From NCBI GenBank assembly GCA_038874135.1, contig JAVZCZ010000001.1, forward strand, positions 416,001 to 480,000: a stretch of DNA of 64,000 nucleotides, in the 5' to 3' direction. The notes under the pieces were generated by a model. It had not been told where the DNA came from. It did no database searches and saw nothing but the letters and a program-made list of their open reading frames with translations. Shown here piece after piece: positions 11,435 to 60,584 of this stretch; the first letter of the stretch is position 1; every line of letters starts with the position of its first letter. This DNA comes from Candidatus Woesearchaeota archaeon (GTDB taxonomy: Archaea; Nanobdellota; Nanobdellia; Woesearchaeales; 0-14-0-80-44-23). The translations under genes and the position numbers were made by a program.

Positions 11435-13552
11435 CTAGGTCACTACAACCTGGCGTTTAGTTGAATCGTATTCAACAAGTATGTTTGTATTTGTATTTAT
11501 ATCTTTTGTGAAATTTATGTTGTCCGAATCTCCGCAGCCGTACTCCGAATCTCCAATTATGTGACACCATTGTCTATCCATCAGAATTTTTGCAATGTCC
11601 CTCTCAGTTACTGCCCTTATGAAGTTATATTCTCGCGGCACTCCCAGTTCTGAGCAGAAGAAACTTGTTTTCTCCTGCCCGTATCTTGACTTGCGCCAGC
11701 AGTCTGCAATTGCTGAAACTATCTCCTCTTTAACAGGATACTTCGTATAGCTGAGTTTAAGATCGTCTGCTATCAGCTGAGTTGGGCCTGCTGTGCTAAT
11801 CTTAAATGTAAATGTACAGTAGTCAGATGAACAGCTTTTTTCAAGCTCTTTAATTTCATCTGTCAAAGAAACTGTTTTTGACTCAGCATTTAAGTTTGTA
11901 GCTGTCATTACATCTTTACCTTCAATAGACAAGGTTACCCCTTCTGCTTTTATGTCGTAGACGATTTTTAGGTGGCTAATGCTAATTGTGCCGTCCCTTC
12001 CAGAGGACACTTCTAAAGGTATTATGCAGTTGCCTTCCTCATCTGGAGAGCATTCTGAGAGAGCTCTCTGCAGGGAATTTACAAAACCCTGCCCTGAAAC
12101 CTTCCACGGAGAATTCACATTGTTTAGCTCGTCTTGGCGGTAGGCAAATTGTACTCCTGAAATGGAAAGCCCTATCTGGTTTGGATAGTTTGAGATAACC
12201 ATCTGCTTAACTGCCTCTGCTAATGCTGCCTCATCCCTAAATCCAAAGATTTTCCCCCCTGTAGAGGAAGCCAGCCTTTTCATCATACTAATTATCTGCC
12301 TACAATTGTTAATCACAACCTCGTTACAGTTTGGCGCTTGAACATTTATGCAGCTATAGGGATGTGAAGGACAGCATCCATCATAACAGCCTGGCCCGCT
12401 TCCTATGCTGAAGCCTTCTGGAGTGGTGCTGTCATCGTCTCCATAAACAACATTAACAAATATATTGTTCTGCTGAGCCTTCTGTATTGCCCTGTCGATT
12501 ACTTCTTCCTCGTTTCCACTCATAGATACTGGCGTGGGGTATTTAGGAGGCGCATCATTAGAGCAGGGGCTGAATACAACTGATTGATAAACAGCCCCGT
12601 TGGGGTCCGAGTCGCTTATGAGGATTTCAATCCTCTTCGCATCTGAGAGCCAAGCATCTTCACCTTCTATCTGCGAGGATAGATAGTAAGATGCTACACC
12701 CCAAGCTTCAGACGGCTGGTCTAAACCTATAGTTGAGTATGAACAACCAGCTGAAGAAAAGGAAAATTGGCATGTATTCATTGGAAGGCCTGTTTCTCTG
12801 AGTTGGTCGTATGTTATTTTCAGGTTCTTCGCTGGAATGGGACAGTTTTTTGCCACATTGGTTTTTCCGCACGGGTCTCCAACGCCGATTGCGTAGACTC
12901 TAACTCTGTACTCTTCTATGTGCATTGCTGACAAGATTTTTGAAATATTACTTACTATTGAGCATACTGCACTCCACTCGTTAGTCATGCTTCCTGAAAT
13001 GTCTATTGCAAAAGCGATATCGGTCTTTGTTGGATAGTTGCTTCCGTAAAGCTCTATGGAAGCATTTTTTATTATTGCATATTTTGGAATTTTTATTAAG
13101 GCCGTGTTGGTTCCCCCTCTCAATGGATAGGGTGGCAGAGTAATGTTTGTTTCTCCAGAAGCAAAGGTTCTGAGCACAATGTTGTGAGGGGCCCCTATAA
13201 CTATTGAAGCGTTTTGAAGAATTGCATCCCTGTCCACTGTTATCTGAAAGGTCCGTTCAAGACGAGAATTACTGAATCCTAAGATTTTAGTGCTGCTCCC
13301 GTCTGAAAACTCAGATGATATAATCTGTTCTGCCTTTATGATTTTGACATCGTGAGGCCCAACGCCTGCGCAGAAGCTGTCCATTCGCGTGTTGTAAAAA
13401 CGGGGAACATACTTGTGTGCAAGTTTGCAGTAGAACTCCTTACCGCTCCTCATCTGAGCTCCAAGGGAAAGCATAAGGGCTATTGCAAGAATGGTTATCA
13501 CTATTGAGAATACTACATTTATTGCAAGCTCACCTCTTTTTTTTACAGACAT
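11435..13552 (-). CDS. Prepilin-like protein with inserted vWA domain (candidate adhesin)
   Basis: KKRG|ELAIN signal; DIAFAIDISGSM (MIDAS DxSxS), ILISDSD, LASSTGG; Cys-rich C-terminal domain shared with two neighbours. Confidence 0.82.
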   Translation of the reverse strand: MSVKKRGELAINVVFSIVITILAIALMLSLGAQMRSGKEFYCKLAHKYVPRFYNTRMDSFCAGVGPHDVKIIKAEQIISSEFSDGSSTKILGFSNSRLERTFQITVDRDAILQNASIVIGAPHNIVLRTFASGETNITLPPYPLRGGTNTALIKIPKYAIIKNASIELYGSNYPTKTDIAFAIDISGSMTNEWSAVCSIVSNISKILSAMHIEEYRVRVYAIGVGDPCGKTNVAKNCPIPAKNLKITYDQLRETGLPMNTCQFSFSSAGCSYSTIGLDQPSEAWGVASYYLSSQIEGEDAWLSDAKRIEILISDSDPNGAVYQSVVFSPCSNDAPPKYPTPVSMSGNEEEVIDRAIQKAQQNNIFVNVVYGDDDSTTPEGFSIGSGPGCYDGCCPSHPYSCINVQAPNCNEVVINNCRQIISMMKRLASSTGGKIFGFRDEAALAEAVKQMVISNYPNQIGLSISGVQFAYRQDELNNVNSPWKVSGQGFVNSLQRALSECSPDEEGNCIIPLEVSSGRDGTISISHLKIVYDIKAEGVTLSIEGKDVMTATNLNAESKTVSLTDEIKELEKSCSSDYCTFTFKISTAGPTQLIADDLKLSYTKYPVKEEIVSAIADCWRKSRYGQEKTSFFCSELGVPREYNFIRAVTERDIAKILMDRQWCHIIGDSEYGCGDSDNINFTKDINTNTNILVEYDSTKRQVVVT

Positions 13553-13557
13553 GTCAA

Positions 13558-15750
13558 TCAGCTCACAATTATTGCTCCTTCCTTTTCAGAGTATTCTATA
13601 AGTACATTTCTTCCCGGAATTATTTTCTGAATTCTCCATTTTAACTGGTCGTACCTTCCGCAGTTAAAATCTGAGTTTCCAAGTGTTTCGCAAAGCCCAT
13701 TTTCTTTTAAAATTTTCGTGATTTTGTCTTCATCTACATCTTCAACATAGGTGCAAGTTGAAGGTATAGTGATCTCATAGCAGAGCAGGTCTGAGTTGCG
13801 CTCTCCAAATCTTGCTTTTTCCCAGCAAGCAAGCGAGTATGCTGCAATAACTTCAGAAACGCTGCACTGCCCATATTCTATTTCAATTCCTGAGAGCACA
13901 ATCTCTCCAGCGTCCTGTGAAGCTGCTGAGATTGTTACTTCGCATTTGTCCTTTTTGCAATTAGCTGCCTGTGAAACCTGTTTGGTTATGTCCAACTGTA
14001 TTGCTGGAGCATATGGCTTCATCACTTCAAAGTTTCCCACATCTACTCCAAAGACGTTTATTAGCACTCCTCTTATAGGAAGTTGGTAGTTTATACTTAG
14101 ATTTTCAATTGAGATTATTGGCTCAGAATTGAATATCATAGCGCTTATCTTCAGGGGAATTATGCAATTTCCATCCTGATCTGGAATGCACCTTCTCAGC
14201 CAGGAGTTCAATTTTTCAGAACTAATATGTGCTGTCCTGCCACTTTTGAATGAGCCGCTGCTCTGCCAGTCTGGCTGTGCCGAATTGCACGAATAAAATT
14301 TTATCCATGAAGATTTTTTCAAGCGAGAAATTATGGCGTTAATCATGAAGTTTGTATCTCCAAACTCCGATCCGAGCTGTTCTTCAATATTTGGAGCGAT
14401 GTAAATCACGCTGCCATTGCCGTATGAGAACTCTATAACTGCCTGTCCAGGTCTTCCATAGTTTCGGTCTGCACATTTTAACTTAAGGTCCTTGTCAAGA
14501 GGAGATGGATTAGTTGAGTTGTAAACGAGGTCCGCAAGGACTTTTACCTTGGAGTTTGAATAGTTTACCTCAACGCAAGGAGTGTTATCATATATCACAG
14601 AGTACTGCTTGTTTGAGCTTACTCCGTATTGCGCTTCTGCCTGTGCGGAGAATGTTATTCTTTGGCTCTCTCCACACCTGCCTCCAAAACCTACAGTTTC
14701 CCTGCACGGAACTATTGATTTATCATTGCAATTTTTTGGAATTGTTGCGTTGCACTCAGTTTTGTAATCTGCCTCATCAGGACTATTGCCTTTTGAAGGA
14801 ATAAGTTGGTCTTGCTTCTTAGCCTGTAAAAGCCCCGGGCAGTTCTGGTATGGAGTTATTCTTTTGAAGTATGGCGTGATTTCTTTTTCAGGAAGTTGAG
14901 ATTCGCTGAAGAGTTCAACTAGAAGGTTTATTGCCCAGCCGGTTACCATCAGCGTGTTTCCTTCTGCTATCCAATCCTTTAAGTATTCCCTGTCAGCACT
15001 ATTTCCGATGGTTGTATTAAGCCCGCTTCCCACTATGAGCACAGAATGTTTTGCGAGTGTCTCTTTCCAGTTTGGGTCTCCCTTCCAGCACTTACTCTCA
15101 TCATATGAGATGAGATAATAGTAGAGATATTTTCTCACATCATCAAAAATTCCGGAGCCGTACTGCTGGCCGCACTTGTTTGAGTAGCCCGTGAAGACAA
15201 GCACTTCTGAACTTTCACCTTCCTGTTTAGAGTAGAAGTCAAAAGAAGCGTTAAGAACGTGGGCGTCCTTGGGAAGTTTCAGAAATAGAGTTTGCTCAGC
15301 TTCTTTTGAGAAGTCCAAAACTTTTGATGTGCTTCCATCGCTCAGAGTATTAACCCTTCCGAGAGAATATCCGAATATTGAAATCTTTGCTCTAGTTATG
15401 TTTGTAGCTGGGACTAGAATGTGAGCGGTAGCAGTTAAGCCAGGGCCTACACTTAAAACTTTTCTTTCAGAACCATCTGAGAAGCTTCTAAGGATCACCT
15501 TTTCCATTTTGATTGTGCTGTTTTGCAAGCTATCATCTTGTGAGCAATATGCTTCTTCAGCTGTTCCGGAACTGAGCGAGAACATCACTTTTAAGGGCGA
15601 AAGTATACTGCAGTAAACGGAGCGGGATAAATACGGAAACTTTGAAAAGATTAACAGGAGAAAAATTGAAACTGCAATTATTCCTACAAATAGTGTAAAT
15701 GCAAGAGTTATTGAAAACTCTCCTTTCCTGCTCATTAGTTTTAGCTTCAT
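13558..15750 (-). CDS. Prepilin-like protein with inserted alpha/beta (possibly GATase-I/ThuA-like) domain
   Basis: SRKG|EFSIT signal; central VLIVGSG..LKDWIAEGNTLMVTG..YGNGSVIY segment; paralogous flanks and C-terminus with 11435..13552. Confidence 0.75.
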   Translation of the reverse strand: MKLKLMSRKGEFSITLAFTLFVGIIAVSIFLLLIFSKFPYLSRSVYCSILSPLKVMFSLSSGTAEEAYCSQDDSLQNSTIKMEKVILRSFSDGSERKVLSVGPGLTATAHILVPATNITRAKISIFGYSLGRVNTLSDGSTSKVLDFSKEAEQTLFLKLPKDAHVLNASFDFYSKQEGESSEVLVFTGYSNKCGQQYGSGIFDDVRKYLYYYLISYDESKCWKGDPNWKETLAKHSVLIVGSGLNTTIGNSADREYLKDWIAEGNTLMVTGWAINLLVELFSESQLPEKEITPYFKRITPYQNCPGLLQAKKQDQLIPSKGNSPDEADYKTECNATIPKNCNDKSIVPCRETVGFGGRCGESQRITFSAQAEAQYGVSSNKQYSVIYDNTPCVEVNYSNSKVKVLADLVYNSTNPSPLDKDLKLKCADRNYGRPGQAVIEFSYGNGSVIYIAPNIEEQLGSEFGDTNFMINAIISRLKKSSWIKFYSCNSAQPDWQSSGSFKSGRTAHISSEKLNSWLRRCIPDQDGNCIIPLKISAMIFNSEPIISIENLSINYQLPIRGVLINVFGVDVGNFEVMKPYAPAIQLDITKQVSQAANCKKDKCEVTISAASQDAGEIVLSGIEIEYGQCSVSEVIAAYSLACWEKARFGERNSDLLCYEITIPSTCTYVEDVDEDKITKILKENGLCETLGNSDFNCGRYDQLKWRIQKIIPGRNVLIEYSEKEGAIIVS

Positions 15751-15751
15751 T

Positions 15752-16627
15752 TTAACTTATTCTTATCTTCTTTGAGTTGTTTAAAAACTCTATCAGGATT
15801 GAGCCCTGCGGATGTATTGAAGTTAAATTCCATTCTATGTCATCTGAATCACCACACTCGTAGTCCAAGTTAGAGATTGCCCCGCATAAACCGTTATCAC
15901 GGAGATATTTAGTAAGCGTTGACTCATTTATGTTAAGCGGCGGACAGTTCCTTATCAGGATTGCCGCGCACGGAATATTTTCAGAGTAGCTTCCGAAGTT
16001 TGCGCTCTCCCAACAAGAGATTGTTGAGGCAGCAATTGCTTCAAGGAGGGGGCAATCCTTATAAGTTAGGGAGAGATCTTTAATCCAAACCTTGCCACTG
16101 CTCCTTACACTTACATTTAAAATGCACGGGTACGCCTTGCATTTTGAGGAGCATTCTGCTAAATTTTTAACAAGTGAACCAGGGCTAGTATAATATTTTG
16201 AGGGAACTGCTCCTTCTATCTGCCAGTCAGCATTTTTAGAACCGCATATGTAAAATTCTGCACTTCCAGACTCTGCCCTTGCTGAAAAGGAAAACCCGGT
16301 GAGGGTAGAATTTATTGGCAGGATGAAGTAGAAGGTGCTTTCACCATTAGAAGTAAAAGTTGTTGAATTGTCCGCAAACCTCTTAACAAAAATCCTGCTA
16401 GGTTTTACTTCAATGAAGTGCAGCATTGAAAATTCCCTGCAATAATCGGAACTTTGCCTTATTCCAGAGGGGAGGAATGATGCAGAAGCCACATAAAAAA
16501 ATGTTTTGCAGTAAACCTGTTTTGCAAATACGGGCATCTGAAATGAAAAGAAGGATATGAGCAACACGATTGCTAAAACTGCTGTCAATCCGCCAAAGAT
16601 TGCACTTATAGTAATTTCAGCCCTCAT
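15752..16627 (-). CDS. Prepilin-like protein, short paralog of the two preceding genes
   Basis: Likely start MRA|EITIS at 16627 (overlapping the upstream stop; ORF track starts at 16648). C-terminal CWESANFG..C..GLCGAISNLDYECG domain. Confidence 0.75.
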   Translation of the reverse strand: MRAEITISAIFGGLTAVLAIVLLISFFSFQMPVFAKQVYCKTFFYVASASFLPSGIRQSSDYCREFSMLHFIEVKPSRIFVKRFADNSTTFTSNGESTFYFILPINSTLTGFSFSARAESGSAEFYICGSKNADWQIEGAVPSKYYTSPGSLVKNLAECSSKCKAYPCILNVSVRSSGKVWIKDLSLTYKDCPLLEAIAASTISCWESANFGSYSENIPCAAILIRNCPPLNINESTLTKYLRDNGLCGAISNLDYECGDSDDIEWNLTSIHPQGSILIEFLNNSKKIRIS

Positions 16628-16974
16628 TCCATCCTCCTCACAAGGCACTTTGAGGAGCTGCTGTAGATCTTAAGAGTGTAGCTTCCAGGTGCCAAACTGT
16701 GAAATCCCTGAAACTCAAAATTGGAAGAGCTGTTAAGAACCCCTTCAGTTATCTCTGCCGTTATAAGGAAGCAGTCCCTCTCTGCAGGACCCCTGCACAA
16801 TTCGCAAAGACGGCTTATCTTGTGGTATAGTTGGCTGGCACTTCCCGAGAAGTTTTGAAGTTCGTCCTCTCGCGTTGGCTTTGCACCTATCACTTTGAAA
16901 GCAAAAGCCATAAGCAGGCCCATCACTGCTACTGCCACTACTAGAATTCCAACCTTCAGGTAAGTATCTTCCAT
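16624..16974 (-). CDS. Small pilin-like protein with N-terminal TM helix
   Basis: Hydrophobic N-terminus, CxxC..C pattern, translational coupling with the next gene. Confidence 0.65.
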   Translation of the reverse strand: MEDTYLKVGILVVAVAVMGLLMAFAFKVIGAKPTREDELQNFSGSASQLYHKISRLCELCRGPAERDCFLITAEITEGVLNSSSNFEFQGFHSLAPGSYTLKIYSSSSKCLVRRME

Positions 16975-17038
16975 AATGCCTTATTTGCCCTTTCAATTTA
17001 AATTTATTTCTCAAATTTTGATGCTGGAAGCATTCGTG

Positions 17039-19174
17039 CTAGCCAGTGGCTGAAATTCCTGAAGCCACCAGCATTTTTAGGAAAGTTGAACCTATCACGG
17101 TTACGAATACGTAGACTATAATTGCAATAAGCACATTCTTGGCTATCTCCGCATCTCTGGATATCTCATCAAAGCCGTTCTCAACGCCGTTTGCAAGCTG
17201 CGATAATAGGAACACTGCTTCTATGGTGTAGATGCCTACTAACACCTGAAATATTGGCGGGGGAGTCACCCGTGTGAAGTTTATAAATTCAGTAAAAAAT
17301 CCAGTATCCTGAGAGCCCAATGCGCTGCCTGCTAGCTTCTGCATTACGAGTTCCAATCTTCCCAACATGTCATAAAGGGATTTAATAATTACAAGGGTCA
17401 ATGAGCCTACGATTCCTGCTATGAACGGTGCTAGGAACTTTGCCTGCATCCTTACTGAGGTGACTGTCTCTTCCAACAAGTCGTATATGAGCTCTTTTAT
17501 CTTCTTCACATTGTCAAGGTAGACTGCAATCTTCTGCATTATATTGTATATAACCTGAGAGCCCTTCCTGGCGCTTTCAGTAAATATCCACATTATCTCT
17601 TTTAAGAGGGTGGACGGGTACTCTTTTATTATGCCCTCTTGAGGGTGAAAGACTGCCTGTCCAAATGTCAGCCCGAGTGTCCGCATCTTTTCAAGAATCC
17701 TATTAAAAAGGTGAAATATCTGCCTCTTTTTTAAGTTCATAACCTGATAATTGTTTACGAAGTTTTCAACTGCGATCTCAACCGGAATATTCTCTGTAAA
17801 CTGGTTTGCTATGCTATACAGAGAGGCGTTTAAATCTTCTTCAATTTCAATTATCTCGTCCCTAAGCTTTATCTTCTGAACGCTCCTTCCATAATAGAAG
17901 AGAAATATGCCAACAGCAATTCCAACGGGTATTGTCAAGGTCATAAACATAACGCTCGACTCGTATTCGTGAGCCAGGGCTGGAGGAGGCGAAGCGTTTG
18001 CCGGAAGCTTGCTGGCTTCCAGGAATACGGGAATTGTAGCAGTGAAAAGGTGAAAAAGCCCCGGGCTCATTATCAAGAGTGCAGCTAAAATGGCAACTGG
18101 GAGGACTGGAACAAGGTAAGACTTCTTTCTAACCAGCAGTCGGTATTTTCCCTTCGGAGGAAGATTAGGATTTCCAGAGATGTCTGGTGCTGAGAAAGCT
18201 CCTGGCCTCTTTGCAAGTATCCTGTTGGAAAAGAAGTATATCAGGGAGGGCAGTATTACGATGTAGCCGAAAAAGAGGTAGGATATTTTAATACTTGAAG
18301 ACATGAATACGCTTATGATTGGAAAAGCAATAAGTCCTATGAGTGGTAGCATTAAGCCGAAGGTGTTTATTATCATTATCGGATTCTTCAAGTCGTGAGC
18401 GTAGTATTTCATCTTTTCATAAGTGTCCTGGAGTAGAGTGGAAAGGGCCTTATCAAGTATTGCAGATTGGTGTTCCTTGTCCGGCTGGGTGGTTACGCTT
18501 AGAAGTATCATAAACGACTTTACAAAGTCGGGATTCCTCTTGAGCCAGAGCTCCATATAAAGTTTGAAGCCGTCGTGAATTGAGGATATCTTTCCACCAT
18601 CTAAAAGCCAGAGTATTCTCTTGAAGTCTCTGCCGAGTGGTCCATTAAGATGCTCTGTGGCAAAGGCTATTGCGTTTTCCAGCACCGGATTCACGCGCAT
18701 GTAAATTGTTATATAGAGGAGAGCTAGTAGTGATTCCTGTTGGGCTCTTATCTTGGTAATCTGACTTGAGAATGCTGGGTATGTGTAAGCTATATAAGCT
18801 AAGAACATTCCCGTGAAGATAAAGAAGAATGCCAAGTCAATCCAGCCCAGAATTATTAGAGGAAGTGCTGACATAATGCCGAGGAGCACTGTTAGGATTG
18901 CAGCTGCTAGCACCTGCTTAGGTCTTATGTGGAGCCTTGCAATTTGGATATCCTCATACATTTCCGGTTGAGATTCATCTTTTACATCTATAAAAGAAAG
19001 AAGTTTTCCTGCAAAATCAGCATATTTTTCAAAAAAAGTGGGAAGTGCAGCCTCCTCTTGCTCTTCCCGAGCAAATGAGGAAAATTGACTGGAAACAAAT
19101 TCCGACTGCTGCCCCTGCCCGGAAGCCAGCCTCTTTTTAACTTCTGCTTCTATCTCTTCAATGCTTTTAGGCAT
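17039..19174 (-). CDS. TadB/TadC (type II secretion F)-like membrane platform protein of a type IV pilus system
   Basis: 711 aa in two repeated halves (NPVLENAIAFA..GPLGRDF; NIPVEIAV) with multiple TM helices; embedded among prepilins. Confidence 0.8.
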   Translation of the reverse strand: MPKSIEEIEAEVKKRLASGQGQQSEFVSSQFSSFAREEQEEAALPTFFEKYADFAGKLLSFIDVKDESQPEMYEDIQIARLHIRPKQVLAAAILTVLLGIMSALPLIILGWIDLAFFFIFTGMFLAYIAYTYPAFSSQITKIRAQQESLLALLYITIYMRVNPVLENAIAFATEHLNGPLGRDFKRILWLLDGGKISSIHDGFKLYMELWLKRNPDFVKSFMILLSVTTQPDKEHQSAILDKALSTLLQDTYEKMKYYAHDLKNPIMIINTFGLMLPLIGLIAFPIISVFMSSSIKISYLFFGYIVILPSLIYFFSNRILAKRPGAFSAPDISGNPNLPPKGKYRLLVRKKSYLVPVLPVAILAALLIMSPGLFHLFTATIPVFLEASKLPANASPPPALAHEYESSVMFMTLTIPVGIAVGIFLFYYGRSVQKIKLRDEIIEIEEDLNASLYSIANQFTENIPVEIAVENFVNNYQVMNLKKRQIFHLFNRILEKMRTLGLTFGQAVFHPQEGIIKEYPSTLLKEIMWIFTESARKGSQVIYNIMQKIAVYLDNVKKIKELIYDLLEETVTSVRMQAKFLAPFIAGIVGSLTLVIIKSLYDMLGRLELVMQKLAGSALGSQDTGFFTEFINFTRVTPPPIFQVLVGIYTIEAVFLLSQLANGVENGFDEISRDAEIAKNVLIAIIVYVFVTVIGSTFLKMLVASGISATG

Positions 19175-19192
19175 AATACACCACTATGTTTT

Positions 19193-20995
19193 TCAAGATA
19201 CTGAAGGTTGATCTGGGGGAGGTGGAGGTGGGTTAGGCGGATTGTATGGAGGACTTGGTGGCTCGGGTGTAGGATTTGGCTCGTCCTTGTTATGAACAAG
19301 TATTCCTTCAGCATAGAAGTCATTCACGCTTTCTATGCGTTTGAGATTGTAGGTTCTTATTTTTGTAGGGCTGCACTCTAATGAGATTACCCTTTTCAAA
19401 ATAATGTTTTTCCCATCAAAACTGAATGCATAATCCCCTCTTTCAAGAGGTAATACTTTGAGATTTGGCGTCTCCCCTTTTGAATTCTCAGGAGAGATTG
19501 AAGCCCAGCCCTTTAGAGTGTATATTGGATGCTCGTCAGTAAGTCTTAAAAATGAGCCGTCTTCAAAGGATACGGTGCAAAGGTGGTCCCTATATGGAGA
19601 TTCAAGCTCCAGCACCCTTGCTGGAACATGCTTTCCAGTTTTAAAATCATAGCCGAGCACCAGCTCTCCAACTCTGACATCTTCAATATTTTTTAAGCTT
19701 CCATCAGCCATTCTTATTCTAGTTCCAGCAGGAAAACAGGAGGAAGGCGTATCACCTGTTGGCTCACAATGTTCTGGGCAGTCGCATTCGGGCTCTGGCG
19801 GGTTCGTAGTTCTGGTGAGGAATACGTGCACTAAAAGGTTGAACCTCAAATTTTCAAAACCGCTTTCAGAGATGGGATGCTGATACTTTGTGTCAGTACA
19901 GGTTATATTCATTATAAAGTCTATATTGTGCCTCTCTCCATAACCGTAGGGGGAGAATGGGCAGGTTATCAGAGTGTTAGGTTCAAGCTGTGTTCCGAAA
20001 GGAATCTCAACTTGGGGCTGCTCTGGAGGGCTTGGGATGTTCTGAGGATTTTCACATTTTCCGTCAGATTTTTGCCCGCTCAAACAGTTCTGCTTAAGAT
20101 CTGGATAAGGGCATCCTGAAGCTGGCCAGATAACTCCGCATCCTGCCGGGCAGTTTATAGCTGCGCTGCACAATATTTCGGTTTTTGCATAAAGGCATGG
20201 AAGAGTGTAGGTACACTTTACATATGAATCAAATGAGTCTTGAAGATGCTTCAATGACGAATCTGCTATTTGTTTAACATATTCCTCATTTATAACATAT
20301 GCTGGACATGCACTTGTTCCAACTCCGTAATAAGTCATAAGTTTATCACAGCTATATTGCGATACGATGTTCTGCCTAGCCCATTCCTCAATCTTCCTGT
20401 AAAGGTACCAGTAGCGCAGGGGATAAGCATATGACTTGAACGCATTCTGCTCCTGAACCTCTTCTCCAGAATCAACTTCCTTAACAACTGCTGGAATTGT
20501 ACCCCTTCCCTCAGCCAAGAAGCCTTCATCTGCGCCTGCGGAACCGTCCATCTCATAAAGGTCTGTATCTGAAACGAGTATTTCAATAGATGATATGTCA
20601 CCCGCATCTTCAATCTTAAATTTTCCAAGATCCTCTCCACGTATTGAAGCAAGATACTGGTTAGTGTAGATGATTGCAAACCGGCTAAGATTACTCTTTG
20701 CTTCCCAAAGTTTAGGCGGGATTGAAGAGGAGTAGCTTATCCAGTATGAGTTCTGAGCACCTGCTCCAGAGCTTGCGCTGTCATAGGATGCACGTATAAG
20801 AGCGTCTCTGAAAGAGTGAAAGGAGTAAGTTCTCAGAATTTCAGAGTAGCTGTTCAGCTGAGATTTCTGCTCTTGAGAAGTTGTAAATTCAACTACAGCC
20901 TTCCTATTCTGAAGATATACCAGGTAGAATATCAGAATTACAAGTGCCACGAAAAAGAGCAGCATAAATGTTGATGCGCGCCTATTGAACTTCAT
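19193..20995 (-). CDS. Prepilin-like Cys-rich protein with C-terminal Hint (intein-like) domain and Pro-rich tail
   Basis: Likely start MKFNRRA|STF at 20995 after SD GAGGTGA (ORF track starts at 21016). Contains CFPAGT...TDEHP...YNL...GILVHN. Confidence 0.85.
   Translation of the reverse strand: MKFNRRASTFMLLFFVALVILIFYLVYLQNRKAVVEFTTSQEQKSQLNSYSEILRTYSFHSFRDALIRASYDSASSGAGAQNSYWISYSSSIPPKLWEAKSNLSRFAIIYTNQYLASIRGEDLGKFKIEDAGDISSIEILVSDTDLYEMDGSAGADEGFLAEGRGTIPAVVKEVDSGEEVQEQNAFKSYAYPLRYWYLYRKIEEWARQNIVSQYSCDKLMTYYGVGTSACPAYVINEEYVKQIADSSLKHLQDSFDSYVKCTYTLPCLYAKTEILCSAAINCPAGCGVIWPASGCPYPDLKQNCLSGQKSDGKCENPQNIPSPPEQPQVEIPFGTQLEPNTLITCPFSPYGYGERHNIDFIMNITCTDTKYQHPISESGFENLRFNLLVHVFLTRTTNPPEPECDCPEHCEPTGDTPSSCFPAGTRIRMADGSLKNIEDVRVGELVLGYDFKTGKHVPARVLELESPYRDHLCTVSFEDGSFLRLTDEHPIYTLKGWASISPENSKGETPNLKVLPLERGDYAFSFDGKNIILKRVISLECSPTKIRTYNLKRIESVNDFYAEGILVHNKDEPNPTPEPPSPPYNPPNPPPPPPDQPSVS
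19289..19738 (-). other. Hint domain (150 aa), no homing endonuclease
   Basis: Block A CFPAGTRIRMADGS, block B LRLTDEHPIY, block F/G TYNL..FYAEGILVHN; the +1 residue is Lys. Confidence 0.88.
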
Positions 20996-21005
20996 AAAAA
21001 TCACC

Positions 21006-21524
21006 TCAGCCTGCAATCACAAGCAGTGCACCCCTCTCGTAGCTTCCCGAAGAGCAGGGTCTTGGAAATCTGAAATCATAGGATACATATTCAGTGAATT
21101 CTGGAGTACCAGATTCGGAGATTAAAGAGGAGGTGAGAAAAAGCGGTTTAGAGCCCTGGCTGTCTGATTTTAGGATTAGAGCCCAAGCATTTTTCCCGTA
21201 TGTGGAGTCAAGCATTGCTCGTAAAGATTGAATTATGTTTATCTGTCCATTCCCGTAGTTTGCAGTTTCCACTCCGTAACAGGAATAAACACCCAAAAGT
21301 TCTTCTATTGGGATTCCCAAAGAGTTTCCTGCTGCATCCTTGGCGGTTATGTATGGAAATGAAAATCCTGTGGAGGCAACTCCTGATACGCGCATATCTC
21401 TAAGTATTGCTTCTGCCCTGTTAAGAACAGATGCAGAGGTCTGCATCCTCACAAAGATTGCAATCAGAACTATTGTTGCCACAAGAACTATTATGCCTAC
21501 GAACTCTGAGGACTGCGCCCGCAT
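21006..21524 (-). CDS. Class III signal peptide (prepilin-like) protein
   Basis: MRA|QSSEF followed by a hydrophobic helix. Confidence 0.75.
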   Translation of the reverse strand: MRAQSSEFVGIIVLVATIVLIAIFVRMQTSASVLNRAEAILRDMRVSGVASTGFSFPYITAKDAAGNSLGIPIEELLGVYSCYGVETANYGNGQINIIQSLRAMLDSTYGKNAWALILKSDSQGSKPLFLTSSLISESGTPEFTEYVSYDFRFPRPCSSGSYERGALLVIAG

Positions 21525-21573
21525 ATCAACCCCTTTTTTGTGAATTAAATTCTCTTTCGCATATTTAAAGTTT

Positions 21574-22308
21574 TCAGTATTTTACTCTTACTGAATTTGA
21601 ACTTTCATTATAAGAGATTAGCACAAGAGATTTTCCTTTGGGAATTGTGAAGTTTCCAACACTGCATTCAAACCTAGGAAAGAAAAGGTATTCCCCAACA
21701 TAGAAAGTGTTTGTAAAGTTATCATACCTTATGTTATAGTCTGAAATAAGAATGTGCTGCATCCCCTCATGGCTCCTGCAAGCCTGTTTTATCTTGCCAT
21801 AAAATGAGGGGATGCTGCCGATGTAAGCGGTAATGGATGCAAATCCGGGATTTATAGTTGGCACCTCCGAAGGGTATCTTATAGCGATAGGAAGTGCTAT
21901 TGTTAAAGTATCCTCTGCAAACTGCGGCTCATTCAAAAGGCCTATGCGCCACTCCTTCCCCGTAAGACTATCTACAACTCTGAATGTGTAGAGAAAGTCA
22001 TACTGCTCTACGCAGGATATGTCCTCGTTACCCCTGTTGTAGTAGTCCAGCTTTTGCTGGTATAATACCGCCTGAGACGCAGTGGTCCAGCTTCCCTCTT
22101 TCTCCTTATATGCGAAACAATCGCTGGCAATCATCGCCTTGAGAAATGAGGTTGCAAGAGCATAATATTCAGATGTAAACTTGGCTTTCTGAGAAGAGGT
22201 TCTACTTCCTAGCAAGGTCATTATTACAAACATTAAAAAAATAACCGTGAATATGGCGAATATTGACTTTATCGTAAGATCCTCAGAGCCCTTTTGTGAA
22301 ATCCTCAT
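21574..22308 (-). CDS. Class III signal peptide (prepilin-like) protein
   Basis: SQKG|SEDLT followed by a hydrophobic helix; SDCFAY motif. Confidence 0.72.
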   Translation of the reverse strand: MRISQKGSEDLTIKSIFAIFTVIFLMFVIMTLLGSRTSSQKAKFTSEYYALATSFLKAMIASDCFAYKEKEGSWTTASQAVLYQQKLDYYNRGNEDISCVEQYDFLYTFRVVDSLTGKEWRIGLLNEPQFAEDTLTIALPIAIRYPSEVPTINPGFASITAYIGSIPSFYGKIKQACRSHEGMQHILISDYNIRYDNFTNTFYVGEYLFFPRFECSVGNFTIPKGKSLVLISYNESSNSVRVKY

Positions 22309-23087
22309 CTTTCACCATTCACCTTCGCTCTTATTATCAAAAAAGCCAACACTAAAATTATACAAATTGCTACTAACGCAGCAATGAGCAGCTTGGAAGA
22401 GTTATCCTCTCTTTTCTGAATAGTTTTAATACAATCGGGATCTTTGTTTGGAGCGCAGTCAGGATCACAGATGCCGTCCTTAACCATATCGCAATAGCCG
22501 TCCCTGCTTCCAGATTTGCAGTCCTGCGGACAGCTAAGATATGTTTCAGTAGGATCGCAGACTGAGTTACCACAGCCTGAAGGGGATATGTTGATAGGGT
22601 TGGTTTCAGTTGGAGTGCTTGTGCTGCAATCTGCTGGACAGCTTATTTCACTTTCATATTTCTCACAAATGCCGTTTACTCGGCAAAAATTAGAAGTTTT
22701 AAAAGAAAAAATTTCTACACCTGATTTAAAGATTTTTATAGTGTCCGCATTGGCAAAAAAAGGAACTTTTAGTTCAATCAGAGTATTATTTGAGCTGATA
22801 GATACTGGCGGATCACTCATTATATTAAAACTAACAAAAAAGGGAAGTGAATATAACTCTTTATCTTCAGAATACACTTTTAGGTAATATTTTGTAGGAG
22901 AGTCTGTTGGAATCGTTTTATACCCTTCAAGCACTTTAGCATATGTTAAGTTTATTTCTCCAGTATTCCAGAATAAAATCTGCATGTCGTAGATTTTTTC
23001 ATATGCCAGAGTCATATCTATTGAAATAAGTAGAAATAACAAAACTGTTGCACTTATTATGAGATTTTTCATTTTCATCAGCCACAA
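22305..23087 (-). CDS. Secreted Cys-rich protein with C-terminal TM anchor
   Basis: Sec-type signal; C..NG.C...E....CP.DC twice and DGICDPDC motif; C-terminal hydrophobic helix. Confidence 0.78.
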   Translation of the reverse strand: MWLMKMKNLIISATVLLFLLISIDMTLAYEKIYDMQILFWNTGEINLTYAKVLEGYKTIPTDSPTKYYLKVYSEDKELYSLPFFVSFNIMSDPPVSISSNNTLIELKVPFFANADTIKIFKSGVEIFSFKTSNFCRVNGICEKYESEISCPADCSTSTPTETNPINISPSGCGNSVCDPTETYLSCPQDCKSGSRDGYCDMVKDGICDPDCAPNKDPDCIKTIQKREDNSSKLLIAALVAICIILVLAFLIIRAKVNGER

Positions 23088-25129
23088 TATTGTTGTATTA
23101 TTCTACTTCTTAAATAAGTATAGCTTGTGGAAGTGAATGCATATCCTTCGCTGCATCCATAACGGCATGCATCCATAGAGCACATTATGCTATCCTTTTC
23201 TGGAACATTTGGACAGCAATAAAGCTCCTCTCCTTCTGGGACATAACAATTATCGTAGCAGTCCCTTCCGCCAACAGTATACCAACCGCTAGGGCAAGAA
23301 CTGCACCTGCCTCCTCCATAACCTTCATCACAAAGTCCAAAGGTGTGTCCCATTTCGTGAGTGCACACATTAGTAATGCGAGTACCTGAAGATACGAGTG
23401 CAGGGTAGTTTAGGTAGGTATATCCGCCAATACAACTTTCTCCTTCATTATACACGCAGTCCCCTGCAACTACACCTATGATTCTATCATACTTTCCCGC
23501 GTACCCCCAGGAAGTTGCACATTGTTGTATTATGTTTAGCGCATTACCATTTCTTCTGTCAGTTTCCGATACTGGACAAATTTTAGTATCTTCAAATAAG
23601 TAGCACACTCTATCTGGACATTCCTTGAATGGACTTAGCGAAACCCAAGCGTCTCTCGCTGCCTTGGCAACATTTCCAAAGTTGCTTATAGGATCTATTT
23701 TTATAAATAACATAGTAAACGAGCAGCTGTTTTTGCATGTATTTCCATCCCAGCTTTTTCCATTTGGACAGCAAGCCTTGTCATTACTATTCTTAGGATT
23801 TGACATGCATTTCAAGCCAGAGTTGCACTCTGCATCGCACTCACACCTTTGCCCTTCTGCTTTTCCTCCTGGTGTGATGCAGTATAAGCCGTTCTGCTTT
23901 TGGCACTTTTTTGTTCCGGAGGGACAGCATCCGCTGCTTTCTGCTCCTACACAGTTTGGACAGCATTCAGCAGTGCACTTGCAGTCATTAGGAGAGTTTT
24001 GGCAGTTTTCGCTGAATGGCTCACTAGTGTTGCAGATGCCATCATTTTTGTAGTTTGTGCACGCCCCGTTTTTGTAGTAGCTGTCTGGGGGGCAGCATCT
24101 AAATGTGCCAAATCTTGTATCGCAGATTAGTTTTTCTCTATCTTGTGAGCATTGGCAGTCCTGAGTGCACTGCTGCCCCTTTGCTGATAGCTTCGTCTTT
24201 TCAATGCAGCCTCTTTCATCTAGGAAGTTTTGAATTGCTGGGCAGTCCGCCTTGCAGATCTGTGAATCTGAGCATTTGCAGTCCTGAAAGAGGGGGTAGT
24301 CTAAGCAGCTTTCTCCCCTGTTTGGCTCGCAAATGCCATTCCCCTTGTGAGGGCAGTCTGCATCATACTGGGTGCAGTCTGGATCGCAAACTCCATTGGT
24401 GCCGAGGCAGTCTGGATCACAGATGCCATCCTTAATATTGTTAGTTGCTGGGTCACAGATTCCGTCATTTTCATAGTCTACGCAGTCAATATCATAAACG
24501 CCCTTGTCAAAGTTTGTATAGCATGCTGGAATGCAGATCTTGTCTGCATCTGCAGGGTCTATTCTACCATTCTTGTTGGTGTCCAAGCAGTAGGGGTTGC
24601 ATACTGATTTTTCCATTGGACTCTTGCAAGCTGGATCGCAGATTCCGAGGGCAATACAGGCAGCATCGCACTTGTCATCTTCAAGGTTGCACTCCTCAGC
24701 TGCATTCGCCCTCGTTATTATGATGTAGTTATCTTTTTTGTAGATGTGTATGATTCCTGAGTTTTCAATATTTGATGGTATTACTACTGAGTTTCCTGGA
24801 AAGAAGTATGTTGTGCTAGTGAGGTTGTTGATTGCAAAATGAGCCAGAATCCTGTTCTGGCTAATGTTTATGGTATAGATTAGTGGGTCTTTGAGCGTTA
24901 TTACGTATTCAACATTTGCGGGAGTGGATGCTGCTTTTTCTATTGCACTCTTTAAATCCTCAACTACTGAGATTGTGTAATCAATCTCAACCTGCTTCGC
25001 CTGTTGGAGAGCCAGGTTTCTTAGGACGCCTACTATTGCAAGAGAGATGAATATCATTCCTATTATAAGGATTGAATTTGTTAAAGTGGCGCCTCTTCTT
25101 CTGGTCCGGTTATTCAAAAATATTTTCAC
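23078..25129 (-). CDS. Prepilin-like Cys-rich protein with C-terminal zinc metalloprotease (metzincin-like)
   Basis: RRRG|ATLT signal; DGICDP repeats; DTNKNGRID loop; HEMGHTFGLCDE and SIMC Met-turn. Confidence 0.82.
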   Translation of the reverse strand: MKIFLNNRTRRRGATLTNSILIIGMIFISLAIVGVLRNLALQQAKQVEIDYTISVVEDLKSAIEKAASTPANVEYVITLKDPLIYTINISQNRILAHFAINNLTSTTYFFPGNSVVIPSNIENSGIIHIYKKDNYIIITRANAAEECNLEDDKCDAACIALGICDPACKSPMEKSVCNPYCLDTNKNGRIDPADADKICIPACYTNFDKGVYDIDCVDYENDGICDPATNNIKDGICDPDCLGTNGVCDPDCTQYDADCPHKGNGICEPNRGESCLDYPLFQDCKCSDSQICKADCPAIQNFLDERGCIEKTKLSAKGQQCTQDCQCSQDREKLICDTRFGTFRCCPPDSYYKNGACTNYKNDGICNTSEPFSENCQNSPNDCKCTAECCPNCVGAESSGCCPSGTKKCQKQNGLYCITPGGKAEGQRCECDAECNSGLKCMSNPKNSNDKACCPNGKSWDGNTCKNSCSFTMLFIKIDPISNFGNVAKAARDAWVSLSPFKECPDRVCYLFEDTKICPVSETDRRNGNALNIIQQCATSWGYAGKYDRIIGVVAGDCVYNEGESCIGGYTYLNYPALVSSGTRITNVCTHEMGHTFGLCDEGYGGGRCSSCPSGWYTVGGRDCYDNCYVPEGEELYCCPNVPEKDSIMCSMDACRYGCSEGYAFTSTSYTYLRSRIIQQYCG

Positions 25130-58593: not shown

Positions 58594-58652
58594 AAAACAG
58601 GTTTGTCAGGCGGCAAAGCTTTATAAATTTTAGAATAAAACATTCATCTAAA

Positions 58653-60584
58653 ATGCACATCAATAGGAAAGGGCACTGGCTGGTGTTCTTTCTCACAATC
58701 GGCTCTTTAATAATATTCGCATTTCTATACGCTACCTTATACAAGAAGGATACACAGCTGACCAAATACATCGGATTTGAACAGATAAGAATGCTGGACA
58801 CATACGCTCAGGGAGAAAAAGCTCTTTATTTCATAGATGTCGCTTCAAAATATGCAATCTATGATGCAGCCGTAAAATTGGGTGAAAACGGAGGCCTGTG
58901 GGGAAGCAGCTGCGGACTGGCTGACGGATTTCAGGCGTGGAGGGATAGAGCTCAGGAGTGCTATCCAAACTCAAGGGACGCTCTGATCAACTTTCAAAAG
59001 GCTTACAGCGATTCGCTCATCAAATACTTAAATTCGTATCCTGAAGGAAGCCTGCCTGTTGGCAAGTACTACTCCATAATCGCTTGGAATAATGACAAAA
59101 CTACAAGCGTAGTGGGCACTACCAAGGAGAGCATAGCAATAATTCCGCCTGGAAGTATTGAAGCATCAATTGACGCTTCAAAGGGGTTTGCATATCCGAT
59201 ACAGAAAAATGGAGGTATTAAAGCTGATAAGTTCTTTGTAACATCCTGTTTTGGAATTAGGATACTTAATGGCGAGCAGGATTCTCATCCTGGTGTTGAT
59301 TTTGGACATCCTGAAGGCACGCCAATATATGCAGTTGACGAAGGAATTGTAGAAGATGTAAGTTATGACTGCAAAAGCAGGTGCGAGGGCTTAATAGGAG
59401 AGGATAAGTGGGGTCCAAGCTGCTACTGCGGATCGGGATATGGGAACTATGTCAAGATAAAACATTCTAACTTTGAAACGGTGTATGCGCATCTGAAGGA
59501 AATCTTTGTAAAGGAAGGCGACTCTGTAAGCAAGGGGCAGCAGATTGGAACTGAGGGGAGCACTGGAAAATCAACAGGTCCACACCTGCACTTTGAACTC
59601 AGAATTAAAGGAAACGCGGTAAATCCGCTATGCGTATATGACACAAATTCTGGAAACTTTGTTTTTTCCGACGGCGGCGATGGAAGCTGCGAGCGTACAA
59701 TGCAGTGCAGCTATGTTGTAACAGCAAGCTCAACCGGCACAAGTGCTGATGAGTCAACATTTAAAGCCGGAGATCTAAGCTATTATGTCAATCCTTCATT
59801 CAAAGCCTCTGCTGAATACAGCTTTCAAATATATGACATTCTGAGTGAGAAGGCAAAAACTATAGTTAAAGCGTGCTCCAAGAAGAGTTATGATGAGAGG
59901 GCGCAGTGCGTAATGAGTAAGTCAAAAGAGCTTTCTGATAGCGAAGTTGAGCTTAGTGTTTGCAGTCAGAAAAAATTCAAATTTGGTGAAGAAGCAATAA
60001 TAACCCTGTTAAGAAGTATTGAAGAAGAATGCCTGGACGGGGACGGCTGTTACTGTTACACGGACTTATTGAACATACCTGCAATAGAGGTGCCTGATGG
60101 GACTTATGATTTTGAAGTAAGTAATGGCTTTCTAAAAGCGAAGGTGTGTACCAGCAGCAATTGCATTTCATCAACTAGGCTTGTGTTCCTCTCAGATAAT
60201 TATGATGATGCTTCTTATAACTTAGGATTCCCAACGACAATTTCTACGAATTACGAAATTGGAATAACTTACAGGAGTGGAAAAATAGTTAGTGCACAAC
60301 TCAGATTTGAGGACTCTTCCGGAAATATGCATGTTTGGGACCTTTCAAACCTTATAATTTTCAAGAAGAGAGGAATTGCGGGAGAACTCTTCTCAATGAT
60401 AGTTAACAAAGACGCATTTGAAAATCCAGACAACCACTTTAAAGAGTATATGAGCTGCGGTTTTTCTCCGGATGCATTTACCTTCTGCGCTATTGACAAG
60501 ACAAACAAGATTCCAGTTTATGTGCCAAACAAAAATAAGCTGTCATTAGAGAACCCAACAATAAAATTCGCACTTTACATATAA
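58653..60584 (+). CDS. Prepilin-like protein with inserted M23 metallopeptidase (peptidoglycan endopeptidase) domain
   Basis: NRKG|HWLVF signal; TSCFG.R, HPGVD (HxxxD), GYGNYVKIKH, YAHL, STGPHLHFE (HxH). Confidence 0.9.
   Translation: MHINRKGHWLVFFLTIGSLIIFAFLYATLYKKDTQLTKYIGFEQIRMLDTYAQGEKALYFIDVASKYAIYDAAVKLGENGGLWGSSCGLADGFQAWRDRAQECYPNSRDALINFQKAYSDSLIKYLNSYPEGSLPVGKYYSIIAWNNDKTTSVVGTTKESIAIIPPGSIEASIDASKGFAYPIQKNGGIKADKFFVTSCFGIRILNGEQDSHPGVDFGHPEGTPIYAVDEGIVEDVSYDCKSRCEGLIGEDKWGPSCYCGSGYGNYVKIKHSNFETVYAHLKEIFVKEGDSVSKGQQIGTEGSTGKSTGPHLHFELRIKGNAVNPLCVYDTNSGNFVFSDGGDGSCERTMQCSYVVTASSTGTSADESTFKAGDLSYYVNPSFKASAEYSFQIYDILSEKAKTIVKACSKKSYDERAQCVMSKSKELSDSEVELSVCSQKKFKFGEEAIITLLRSIEEECLDGDGCYCYTDLLNIPAIEVPDGTYDFEVSNGFLKAKVCTSSNCISSTRLVFLSDNYDDASYNLGFPTTISTNYEIGITYRSGKIVSAQLRFEDSSGNMHVWDLSNLIIFKKRGIAGELFSMIVNKDAFENPDNHFKEYMSCGFSPDAFTFCAIDKTNKIPVYVPNKNKLSLENPTIKFALYI

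Follow-up and report, generated by a model that had tools for sequence, protein, structure and literature searches.

A predicted M23 peptidoglycan endopeptidase in the slot of a conserved, probably pilin-like scaffold of Woesearchaeota

Introduction

The window analysed here is a 64-kb stretch (bases 416001-480000) of the 909,956-bp contig of a Candidatus Woesearchaeota archaeon, and it contains a gene at 58653..60584 whose product, labelled P0001, carries a complete M23 zinc peptidase domain between two conserved non-catalytic modules, a head and a cysteine-rich tail. The carrier of the enzyme is an undescribed, widely conserved modular scaffold with a slot for hydrolases. Taking the evidence as a whole, we consider it likely that P0001 is a surface-held, catalytically competent M23 endopeptidase on a two-part scaffold, which would cut bacterial murein at the points of contact between archaeon and bacterium. 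Positions without a prefix are those of the window, and C1 marks coordinates of the whole genome.

Results

The M23 domain is complete and conserved

When P0001 was scanned against Pfam, only Peptidase_M23 (PF01551) passed, covering residues 211-325 with an E-value of 5.9e-30 and 103.8 bits against a cut-off of 28.7, and no recognised peptidoglycan-binding domain was returned by the scan. An initial annotation of this DNA had read complete M23 zinc motifs from the sequence, and this was confirmed: HPGVD corresponds to H212-D216 (59286-59300), HLH to H311-H313 (59583-59591), the catalytic H280 is also present, and H212, D216, H280, H311 and H313 are invariant in the full-length homologues, down to 34% identity. 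The nearest solved relatives of the domain by sequence are the TagE/Csd, ShyA and NMB0315-type DD-endopeptidases of Gram-negative bacteria (E 2e-18 to 3e-17), with lysostaphin far more distant (E 2e-8). For AlphaFold, an alignment built from head-to-tail pieces (A7) was used, in which 92-100% of tail residues were placed correctly; a mixed-fragment alignment (A5) placed ∼22% and was discarded. The resulting full-length model has a mean predicted local distance difference test score (pLDDT) of 86.8 and a predicted template modelling score of 0.74, and its M23 domain takes the LytM fold. Searches of the ESM Atlas by shape and by features gave M23 clusters alone, or nothing.

Degenerate LytM domains (EnvC, DipM, SpoIIQ) are among the highest-ranking structural matches, as might be expected if P0001 were a non-catalytic LytM-type regulator or adhesin resembling EnvC or NlpD; a related proposal would make it a functionless remnant of a recent bacterial or phage acquisition. 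A degenerate regulator was rejected, since all zinc ligands and the catalytic His are conserved down to 34-48% identity, and a remnant is opposed by conservation over the full length, synteny among housekeeping genes, a promoter-like box, and the absence of phage genes nearby. We regard these proposals as highly improbable.

The Pfam match spreads 115 residues over 95 profile positions, indicating an insertion of ∼20 residues, and this agrees with the extra Cys-rich loop that had been noticed earlier, now placed at residues 240-259. Its four Cys (C240, C244, C257, C259) are invariant in a three-sequence alignment and kept in five of the six aligned family members; P0125 lacks the loop, and the more distant L021 and L023 have other Cys-rich loops at this place. 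Because most of the family has the loop while distant scaffold-borne M23 domains have different ones, it is a variable loop of the M23 domain, not a unique invention. A second pair, C199 and C327, flanks the domain and is common to 9 of 11 aligned scaffold-borne M23 domains, whereas none of four bacterial-type domains has both; the pair may be a disulfide staple that closes the cassette. Altogether, 20 Cys are invariant in the three-way alignment of P0001, as expected for an extracytoplasmic protein.

A tree of 70 short M23 domains (FastTree, midpoint root) did not settle whether the scaffold-borne domains arose once, and it split P0001's own family in two. In some scaffold-borne M23 domains the sequence GPHLDFK was also observed, where HxH reads H-L-D and the second zinc His is replaced by Asp, with HxxxD and the other His kept. 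This variant may represent an unusual metal site or altered activity.

The enzyme occupies a slot that other hydrolases share

The two modules on either side of the M23 cassette are conserved well beyond P0001. Family N-termini give a head consensus in which [KR][KR][G/A/S] and ∼22 uncharged residues are followed by IGxxQ...Y..E..LFYIDQSAKY...L...GG...CG..GY.LW...ECYP. The tail is modelled with a pLDDT of 85; Foldseek, run with this tail model, returned nothing from the PDB at E <= 0.001, and the top VIA matches of the tail were minor pilins or pseudopilins, all of them weak. In 23 of 61 same-order genomes, a profile of the C-terminal 309 residues detected large open reading frames (ORFs) whose lengths differ widely, and a profile of three tails picked up 77 representatives when run on a 1.8-billion-protein library. 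With a broader tail profile, the scaffold was present in 174 of 401 sampled high-quality genomes of the phylum (∼43%), nearly all belonging to the same order, in one or two copies each and usually one.

Mapping the modules over all members yielded four architectures, classes A to D (Table 1), and P0001 falls in class B, which has an insert between head and tail. To define the content of this slot, we considered the 16 class-B proteins outside P0001's own family, 14 examined by Pfam and two (L021 and L023) by a local hidden Markov model (HMM). A recognisable murein hydrolase fills the slot in 15 of the 16 (13 of the 14 by Pfam), and the slot of L017 has no Pfam match. Other members carry cassettes outside the slot, with SLT or 3D domains before the tail and GH108 or SLT domains behind it. 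Domain counts among 75 representatives were SLT 12, M23 6, glucosaminidase 4, NlpC/P60 2, GH108 2, and one each of VanY, M15 and 3D. In a tree of the tails, architectures and cassette types are interleaved, an arrangement that suggests, but does not prove, repeated swapping. The earlier proposal that an M23 domain is inserted in a scaffold is well supported, because the slot of class-B relatives holds hydrolases in 15 of 16 cases, and the scaffold proves far more general than had been supposed.

Two further observations concern this family. A GDSL/SGNH esterase domain ends two scaffold members (P0141, residues 624-817; L015:3432-7202 on the minus strand, residues 1066-1244), and may be a peptidoglycan O-acetyl esterase partnering the SLT or NlpC/P60 cassette. 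An ORF of 161 aa that lies beyond the window, at C1:865629-866114 (+), is the second-best match to the head HMM in P0001's own genome (E 0.002), with a KK-S start, an IGxxQ-like segment and an ID.S motif aligned; its product may be a small protein related to the head module.

Bacterial murein is the best-supported substrate

No Mur ligase was found in the genome that encodes P0001, and the organism therefore makes neither murein nor pseudomurein. The domains that share the slot have known targets: SLT and glucosaminidase cut the glycan of N-acetylmuramic acid and N-acetylglucosamine (MurNAc-GlcNAc), and the bonds attacked by NlpC/P60 and M23 lie in the D-amino-acid stem or the cross-link. Pseudomurein lacks both the MurNAc-GlcNAc beta-1,4 glycan and stems with D-Glu and meso-diaminopimelate. 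Since the slot families cut different bonds of one polymer, and these features are absent from pseudomurein, bacterial murein is the best-supported substrate of P0001 as judged from its sequence relatives. The initial annotation had left room for a bacterial or a pseudomurein-walled host or prey; the first of these is favoured by the slot cassettes and the second is disfavoured.

A target in the pseudomurein or proteinaceous envelope of an archaeal host such as a methanogen would fit proposals that Woesearchaeota are methanogen partners, and M23 enzymes, which cut peptide bonds, could in principle accept other cross-links. Such a target is very unlikely in our estimate, given that the SLT, glucosaminidase and NlpC/P60 domains in the same slot, and GH108 elsewhere on the scaffold, need features that pseudomurein lacks, and that the closest solved relatives are the Gram-negative DD-endopeptidases named above.

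The presence of hydrolases at one slot position in P0001 and its relatives points to proteins that act physically on bacteria, by attacking them or by attaching to them. The most economical interpretation is a role that depends on contact with bacteria, be it for attachment, access, feeding or killing. Alternatively, P0001 could degrade free wall debris of dead bacteria (sacculi and muropeptides) for amino acids and sugars, with no living host or prey involved. The small genome (910 kb) belongs to an organism that probably relies on external building blocks, surface-bound hydrolases are common among scavengers, and no toxin or delivery genes were seen adjacent to the M23 gene. Nevertheless, an M23 endopeptidase by itself frees no assimilable monomer, and single-copy conservation on a pilin-like anchor, together with the swapping of glycan- and peptide-cutters, looks like a contact tool and not like a catabolic pathway; scavenging is unlikely.

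The genome also encodes a second murein hydrolase, a 360-aa SLT protein with an internal signal anchor (C1:654316-655398, minus strand), located outside the window and not a member of the head/tail scaffold family.

Evidence for and against a pilin-like anchor and display on a filament

The class III-like signal reported in the initial annotation is present in P0001 as NRKG7 followed by 22 uncharged residues, and the pattern of [KR][KR][G/A/S] and a hydrophobic stretch recurs in 37 of 40 family heads. KK[G/A/S]-hydrophobic motifs are the form of archaeal prepilin-peptidase sites. Accompanying genes are found elsewhere in the genome, which encodes an A24 prepilin peptidase (C1:265058-265936) and three T2SSE ATPases with T2SSF partners. 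The P0001 model opens with a helix of 74 residues (5-39, 42-78) that leads into strands, and its best non-M23 structural match is GspK, in an alignment that spans the insert. In GspK, a large domain is inserted into a pilin fold.

These features raise the possibility that processed P0001 is a minor tip subunit, resembling GspK or PilX, of a type IV pilus-like filament, and that its M23 domain is pushed through the bacterial wall in the manner of a phage tail-associated lysin. The class III-like motif throughout the family, the genome's A24 peptidase and its three ATPase/platform sets, the long N-terminal helix leading into a sheet, the best non-M23 fold matches (GspK, PilX, ComP and other pilins), and the homology of the head to that of another pilin-like protein described below all speak for this possibility, and one copy per genome suits a minor subunit. 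Several points weigh against a pilin and its filament. The +1 His and +2 Trp of P0001 are atypical for archaeal class III sites under the FlaFind rule, and class III signals in archaea serve non-filament surface proteins too. Among 34 heads, no Pfam pilin family matched at E <= 1, the one exception being an isolated Flp_Fap match (E 0.002), and the head profile matched no solved pilin. Finally, tblastn with queries from P0001's own genome found no T2SSE, T2SSF or A24 homologue within ∼6 kb in 22 scaffold loci.

Weighing these points, we conclude that the anchor of P0001 is probably of class III type, that its fold is plausibly pilin-like and that the scaffold to which it belongs is probably pilin-like. 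Display on a filament, placement at a pilus tip included, seems to us rather unlikely. The first account of the protein as a filament-displayed wall-cutting enzyme is supported in part: the M23 domain is intact, and the filament is a hypothesis, with no pilus machinery found in the 22 loci.

In a more elaborate proposal, P0001 would be a single-copy, GspK-like minor pilin of Woesearchaeales with a universal slot that is repeatedly swapped between M23, SLT, glucosaminidase and NlpC/P60, sitting at a pilus-like tip that drills the wall of a bacterial host, each cassette being tuned to the peptidoglycan chemotype of that host. This combination is unlikely; if true, the system would be a cellular counterpart, in archaea, of the lysins on phage tails, and would allow the host to be predicted from the genome.

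At the edge of the window, the C-terminal half of a 778-aa protein (87-2423, minus strand) contains a domain of the T2SSE type (pilus/secretion ATPase), and a weak T2SSF-like match lies just beyond the window, upstream of its first base, at C1:415173-415541. Together, these would be a third, divergent pilus-type machinery.

The Hint protein of the same window shares the head type only

The window encodes another pilin-like protein at 19193..20995 on the minus strand, which carries a Hint domain and which the initial annotation assigned to the same scaffold family as P0001. The assignment is supported for the head and not for the tail. Profile-profile alignment (hhalign) of the two heads gave a probability of 91% and an E-value of 1e-6 over 123 columns, and 83% with a second head profile, with part of the score coming from the hydrophobic signal segment. 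The head HMM ranked the Hint protein third in P0001's own genome, at E 0.09 and mainly through the same segment, and BLASTP of P0001 against the Hint protein gave no match. When the tail HMM was run on the genome, nothing besides P0001 matched at E <= 10; hhalign of the tail against the Hint protein, including the tail-N and tail-C sub-profiles, remained at a probability of 0.1-0.2% (E 0.3-0.6), not above chance, and adding tail-N to the head profile did not lengthen the head match.

The short resemblances from which the shared family had been proposed can be read in the same way. YDAAVKLGENGG and YDSASSGAG fall in the same register in the head alignment. The likeness of FKASAEYSFQIY to FKSYAYPLRYW is at chance level, yet the best non-significant alignment does fall in the proposed register, and the C-terminal likeness of IKFAL to LRFNL is at chance level with the best alignment elsewhere (NIDFI, residues 357-361). 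Because the heads align profile to profile while the tail has no counterpart, the two proteins share, on sequence comparison, a head type and not a whole scaffold.

Records of four of the five Hint-protein orthologues (P0201-P0204) show proteins of 446-452 aa without a Hint domain, 59-63% identical over the N-terminal 415 residues, and since these four lack it, the Hint module is an addition in this lineage. The surroundings of the Hint protein (11435-25129, minus strand) contain at least eight large ORFs without Pfam matches, among which 23078-25129 gives a weak match to Reprolysin_5 (M12 metallopeptidase, E 0.003).

The M23 gene is native to an archaeal genome

The gene at 58653..60584 is a real, native ORF of an archaeal genome, which is closed in one contig, 99.4% complete and 0.24% contaminated. 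Upstream of it lie genes for a P-type ATPase, a HAD hydrolase and TldD/PmbA, and downstream are an archaeosine-type tRNA-guanine transglycosylase (TGT), PCNA and an asparagine-synthase-like protein; PCNA and the archaeosine TGT are characteristically archaeal, the remaining neighbours are ordinary genes, and no phage genes were seen near the M23 gene. On a JGI contig that encodes a 48%-identical homologue, the order ATPase-HAD-TldD-M23 is kept and is followed by a truncated gene without a family call, and in three related genomes a TGT-like ORF, judged by its N-terminal sequence, follows the M23 gene. The GC content of the gene is like that of its surroundings. The TATA-box-like TTTATAAA upstream suggests an own archaeal promoter and an mRNA that would be leaderless or have a short leader, an assignment that draws on general knowledge of archaeal promoters.

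Full-length homologues of P0001 are only a handful (48% and 42% identity, plus those in genomes of the same genus and the same family), and public records name the homologues of both P0001 and the Hint protein 'Candidatus Woesearchaeota archaeon'. The M23 gene is the sole one of its kind, as no second M23 gene was found in the genome. A contig scan with P0001 as query gave no relative, single-sequence searches of the genome with the P0001 head, its tail and the N-terminal part of the Hint protein found no paralogue, and a word-indexed search with head residues 1-205 returned the query alone, at the sensitivity limit of that search.

Contamination, which the initial annotation had named among the results that would refute it, and recent transfer are excluded by the complete archaeal contig, the archaeal neighbours, the kept synteny, the matching GC content, the TTTATAAA box and the Woesearchaeota-named homologues. 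A provirus was likewise considered and rejected.

Table 1. Features of the M23 gene, its scaffold relatives and the Hint-protein head. Positions refer to the window unless a locus or protein label is given; res, residues.
Feature	Position or member	Strand	Basis or remark
Whole M23 gene: head, M23 cassette and tail; 643 aa + stop	58653..60584	+	open frame; protein label P0001
TATA-box-like TTTATAAA, purine-rich AAAGC before it, 25 nt upstream of ATG	58621..58628	+	read from sequence
Class III-like signal, MHINRK-G7 + 22 uncharged residues, res 1-30; predicted start of long N-terminal helix	58653..58742	+	motif; helix 5-39 in model
Conserved head module, res 1-146: signal, helices 5-39 and 42-78, motifs IGxEQ, YFID, GG, C87, W96, EC103YP, then beta strands	58653..59090	+	local HMM from 44 heads, E 2.3e-44; alignment A9; model
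M23 (LytM-type) zinc endopeptidase cassette, res ∼171-335; H212, D216, H280, H311, H313; Cys pair C199/C327	59163..59657	+	
Cys pair around M23 domain: C199 in SC[FY]G, C327 in NP[LF]C	59247-59249 and 59631-59633		alignment
Extra four-Cys loop in M23 domain (C240, C244, C257, C259), res 240-259, before GYGN strand	59370..59429	+	model pLDDT 55-58
Conserved Cys-rich tail module, res 361-643: YYVNPSFKA start, IKFAL end; helices 393-460, then beta-rich	59733..60581	+	iterated local HMM, E 5.3e-68
Hint-protein head, res 1-127; sole part resembling P0001 head	20615..20995	-	hhalign 91%, template columns 5-127; 83%
M23 domains with H-L-D	L021:4884-8051, L023:4921-8928, L016:4131-6548	-	
M23 domain with H-L-D	P0191 res 1193-1343		
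Class A			head and tail contiguous, gap ∼16 residues; smallest members 267-304 aa
Class B	P0001 and others		head, 180-560-residue insert, tail; ∼215 residues between head and tail in P0001
Class C			signal, tail and C-terminal extension
Class D			N-terminal domain, tail and extension
Slot with glucosaminidase	P0153, P0128, P0172		Pfam
Slot with M23	P0154; L021, L023		Pfam (P0154); local HMM (L021, L023)
Slot with SLT	P0155, P0162, P0171, P0191, L018, L022		Pfam
Slot with NlpC/P60	P0180, P0188, L015		Pfam

Discussion

The idea that the abundant DPANN Woesearchaeota may live on bacteria has rested so far on scattered SLT genes, and to our knowledge no member of the group has been cultured. A conserved, usually single-copy scaffold turns the loose idea of bacteria-directed DPANN into a defined, testable molecular object. 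The scaffold family is a marker for metatranscriptomic and imaging work, its cassettes could narrow host groups, and it would add an enzyme-bearing class to the modular pilin-like proteins.

We propose that P0001 acts as an extracytoplasmic M23 (LytM-type) peptidoglycan endopeptidase, predicted to be catalytically competent, which the two-part scaffold would hold at the Woesearchaeota cell surface. The A24 peptidase probably cuts the class III-type signal of the head, leaving the long N-terminal helix as the anchor. The enzyme occupies a fixed slot, with the head on one side and a disulfide-rich tail on the other. P0001 would either be part of a pilus-like filament, perhaps as a bulky tip subunit of the GspK kind, or be held by plain membrane anchoring. 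At contact between the archaeon and a bacterium, P0001 probably cuts the peptide cross-links of bacterial murein, in the service of attachment, host access or feeding.

Parts of this system are already familiar. P0001 can be annotated as an M23 peptidase, homologues bear the database name 'M23 family metallopeptidase [Candidatus Woesearchaeota archaeon]', and archaeal peptidoglycan hydrolases and modular pilins are known kinds of protein. Keyword look-ups in the literature, including passages of PMC12352652, PMC8204110 and PMC9723730, found no description of the head/slot/tail scaffold, of its class III-type signal or of the swapping of hydrolases at the same position, and the term 'pilin' is absent from these three papers.

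Within the M23 family (LytM, lysostaphin, ShyA, Csd1/TagE and NMB0315/Mpg), the sequence family, the catalytic residues and the predicted fold are the same as in P0001. In contrast to the bacterial enzymes, P0001 belongs to a murein-less archaeon and has no LysM, SH3b or coiled-coil partner domain; it adds the four-Cys loop and C199/C327, and has a conserved module without catalytic function on either side of its M23 domain.

Wall-less archaea with murein hydrolase domains have been described before, and these domains were likewise read as acting on bacteria. Examples are Woldo and Danwoldo from Halogranum salarium (PMC12352652) and, in Woesearchaeota and Pacearchaeota, large extracellular proteins with SLT domains (fam00969 in PMC8204110; PMC9723730). 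A haloarchaeal M23 enzyme was proven experimentally to kill bacteria (PMC12352652), and a role of P0001 on bacteria agrees with this work and with the reading given to the Woesearchaeota SLT genes in PMC8204110 and PMC9723730. Woldo is described there as Tat-secreted and equipped with PG_binding_1 domains (PMC12352652), whereas P0001 has neither. The same paper defines a modular peptidoglycan hydrolase by a catalytic and a peptidoglycan-binding domain, which excludes P0001, and it counts M23 in four Nanoarchaeia genomes, considering only proteins with a peptidoglycan-binding domain (PMC12352652).

Two other systems place enzymes or modules on structural carriers. Modular type IV pilins and the tip pseudopilin GspK (Streptococcus sanguinis PilB and PilC; GspK of enterotoxigenic Escherichia coli, PDB 3ci0) combine, as P0001 plausibly does, a prepilin-type signal and helix with a module grafted on or in a pilin-like fold. 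The virion-associated M23 lysins of phages (phi29 gp13 and proteins of cyanophages A4 and A-1(L)), which are among the sequence and fold matches of P0001, bear M23 on a structural penetrating device. P0001 differs from these lysins in that its gene is chromosomal, with housekeeping neighbours and no phage context, and its carrier is unrelated to theirs.

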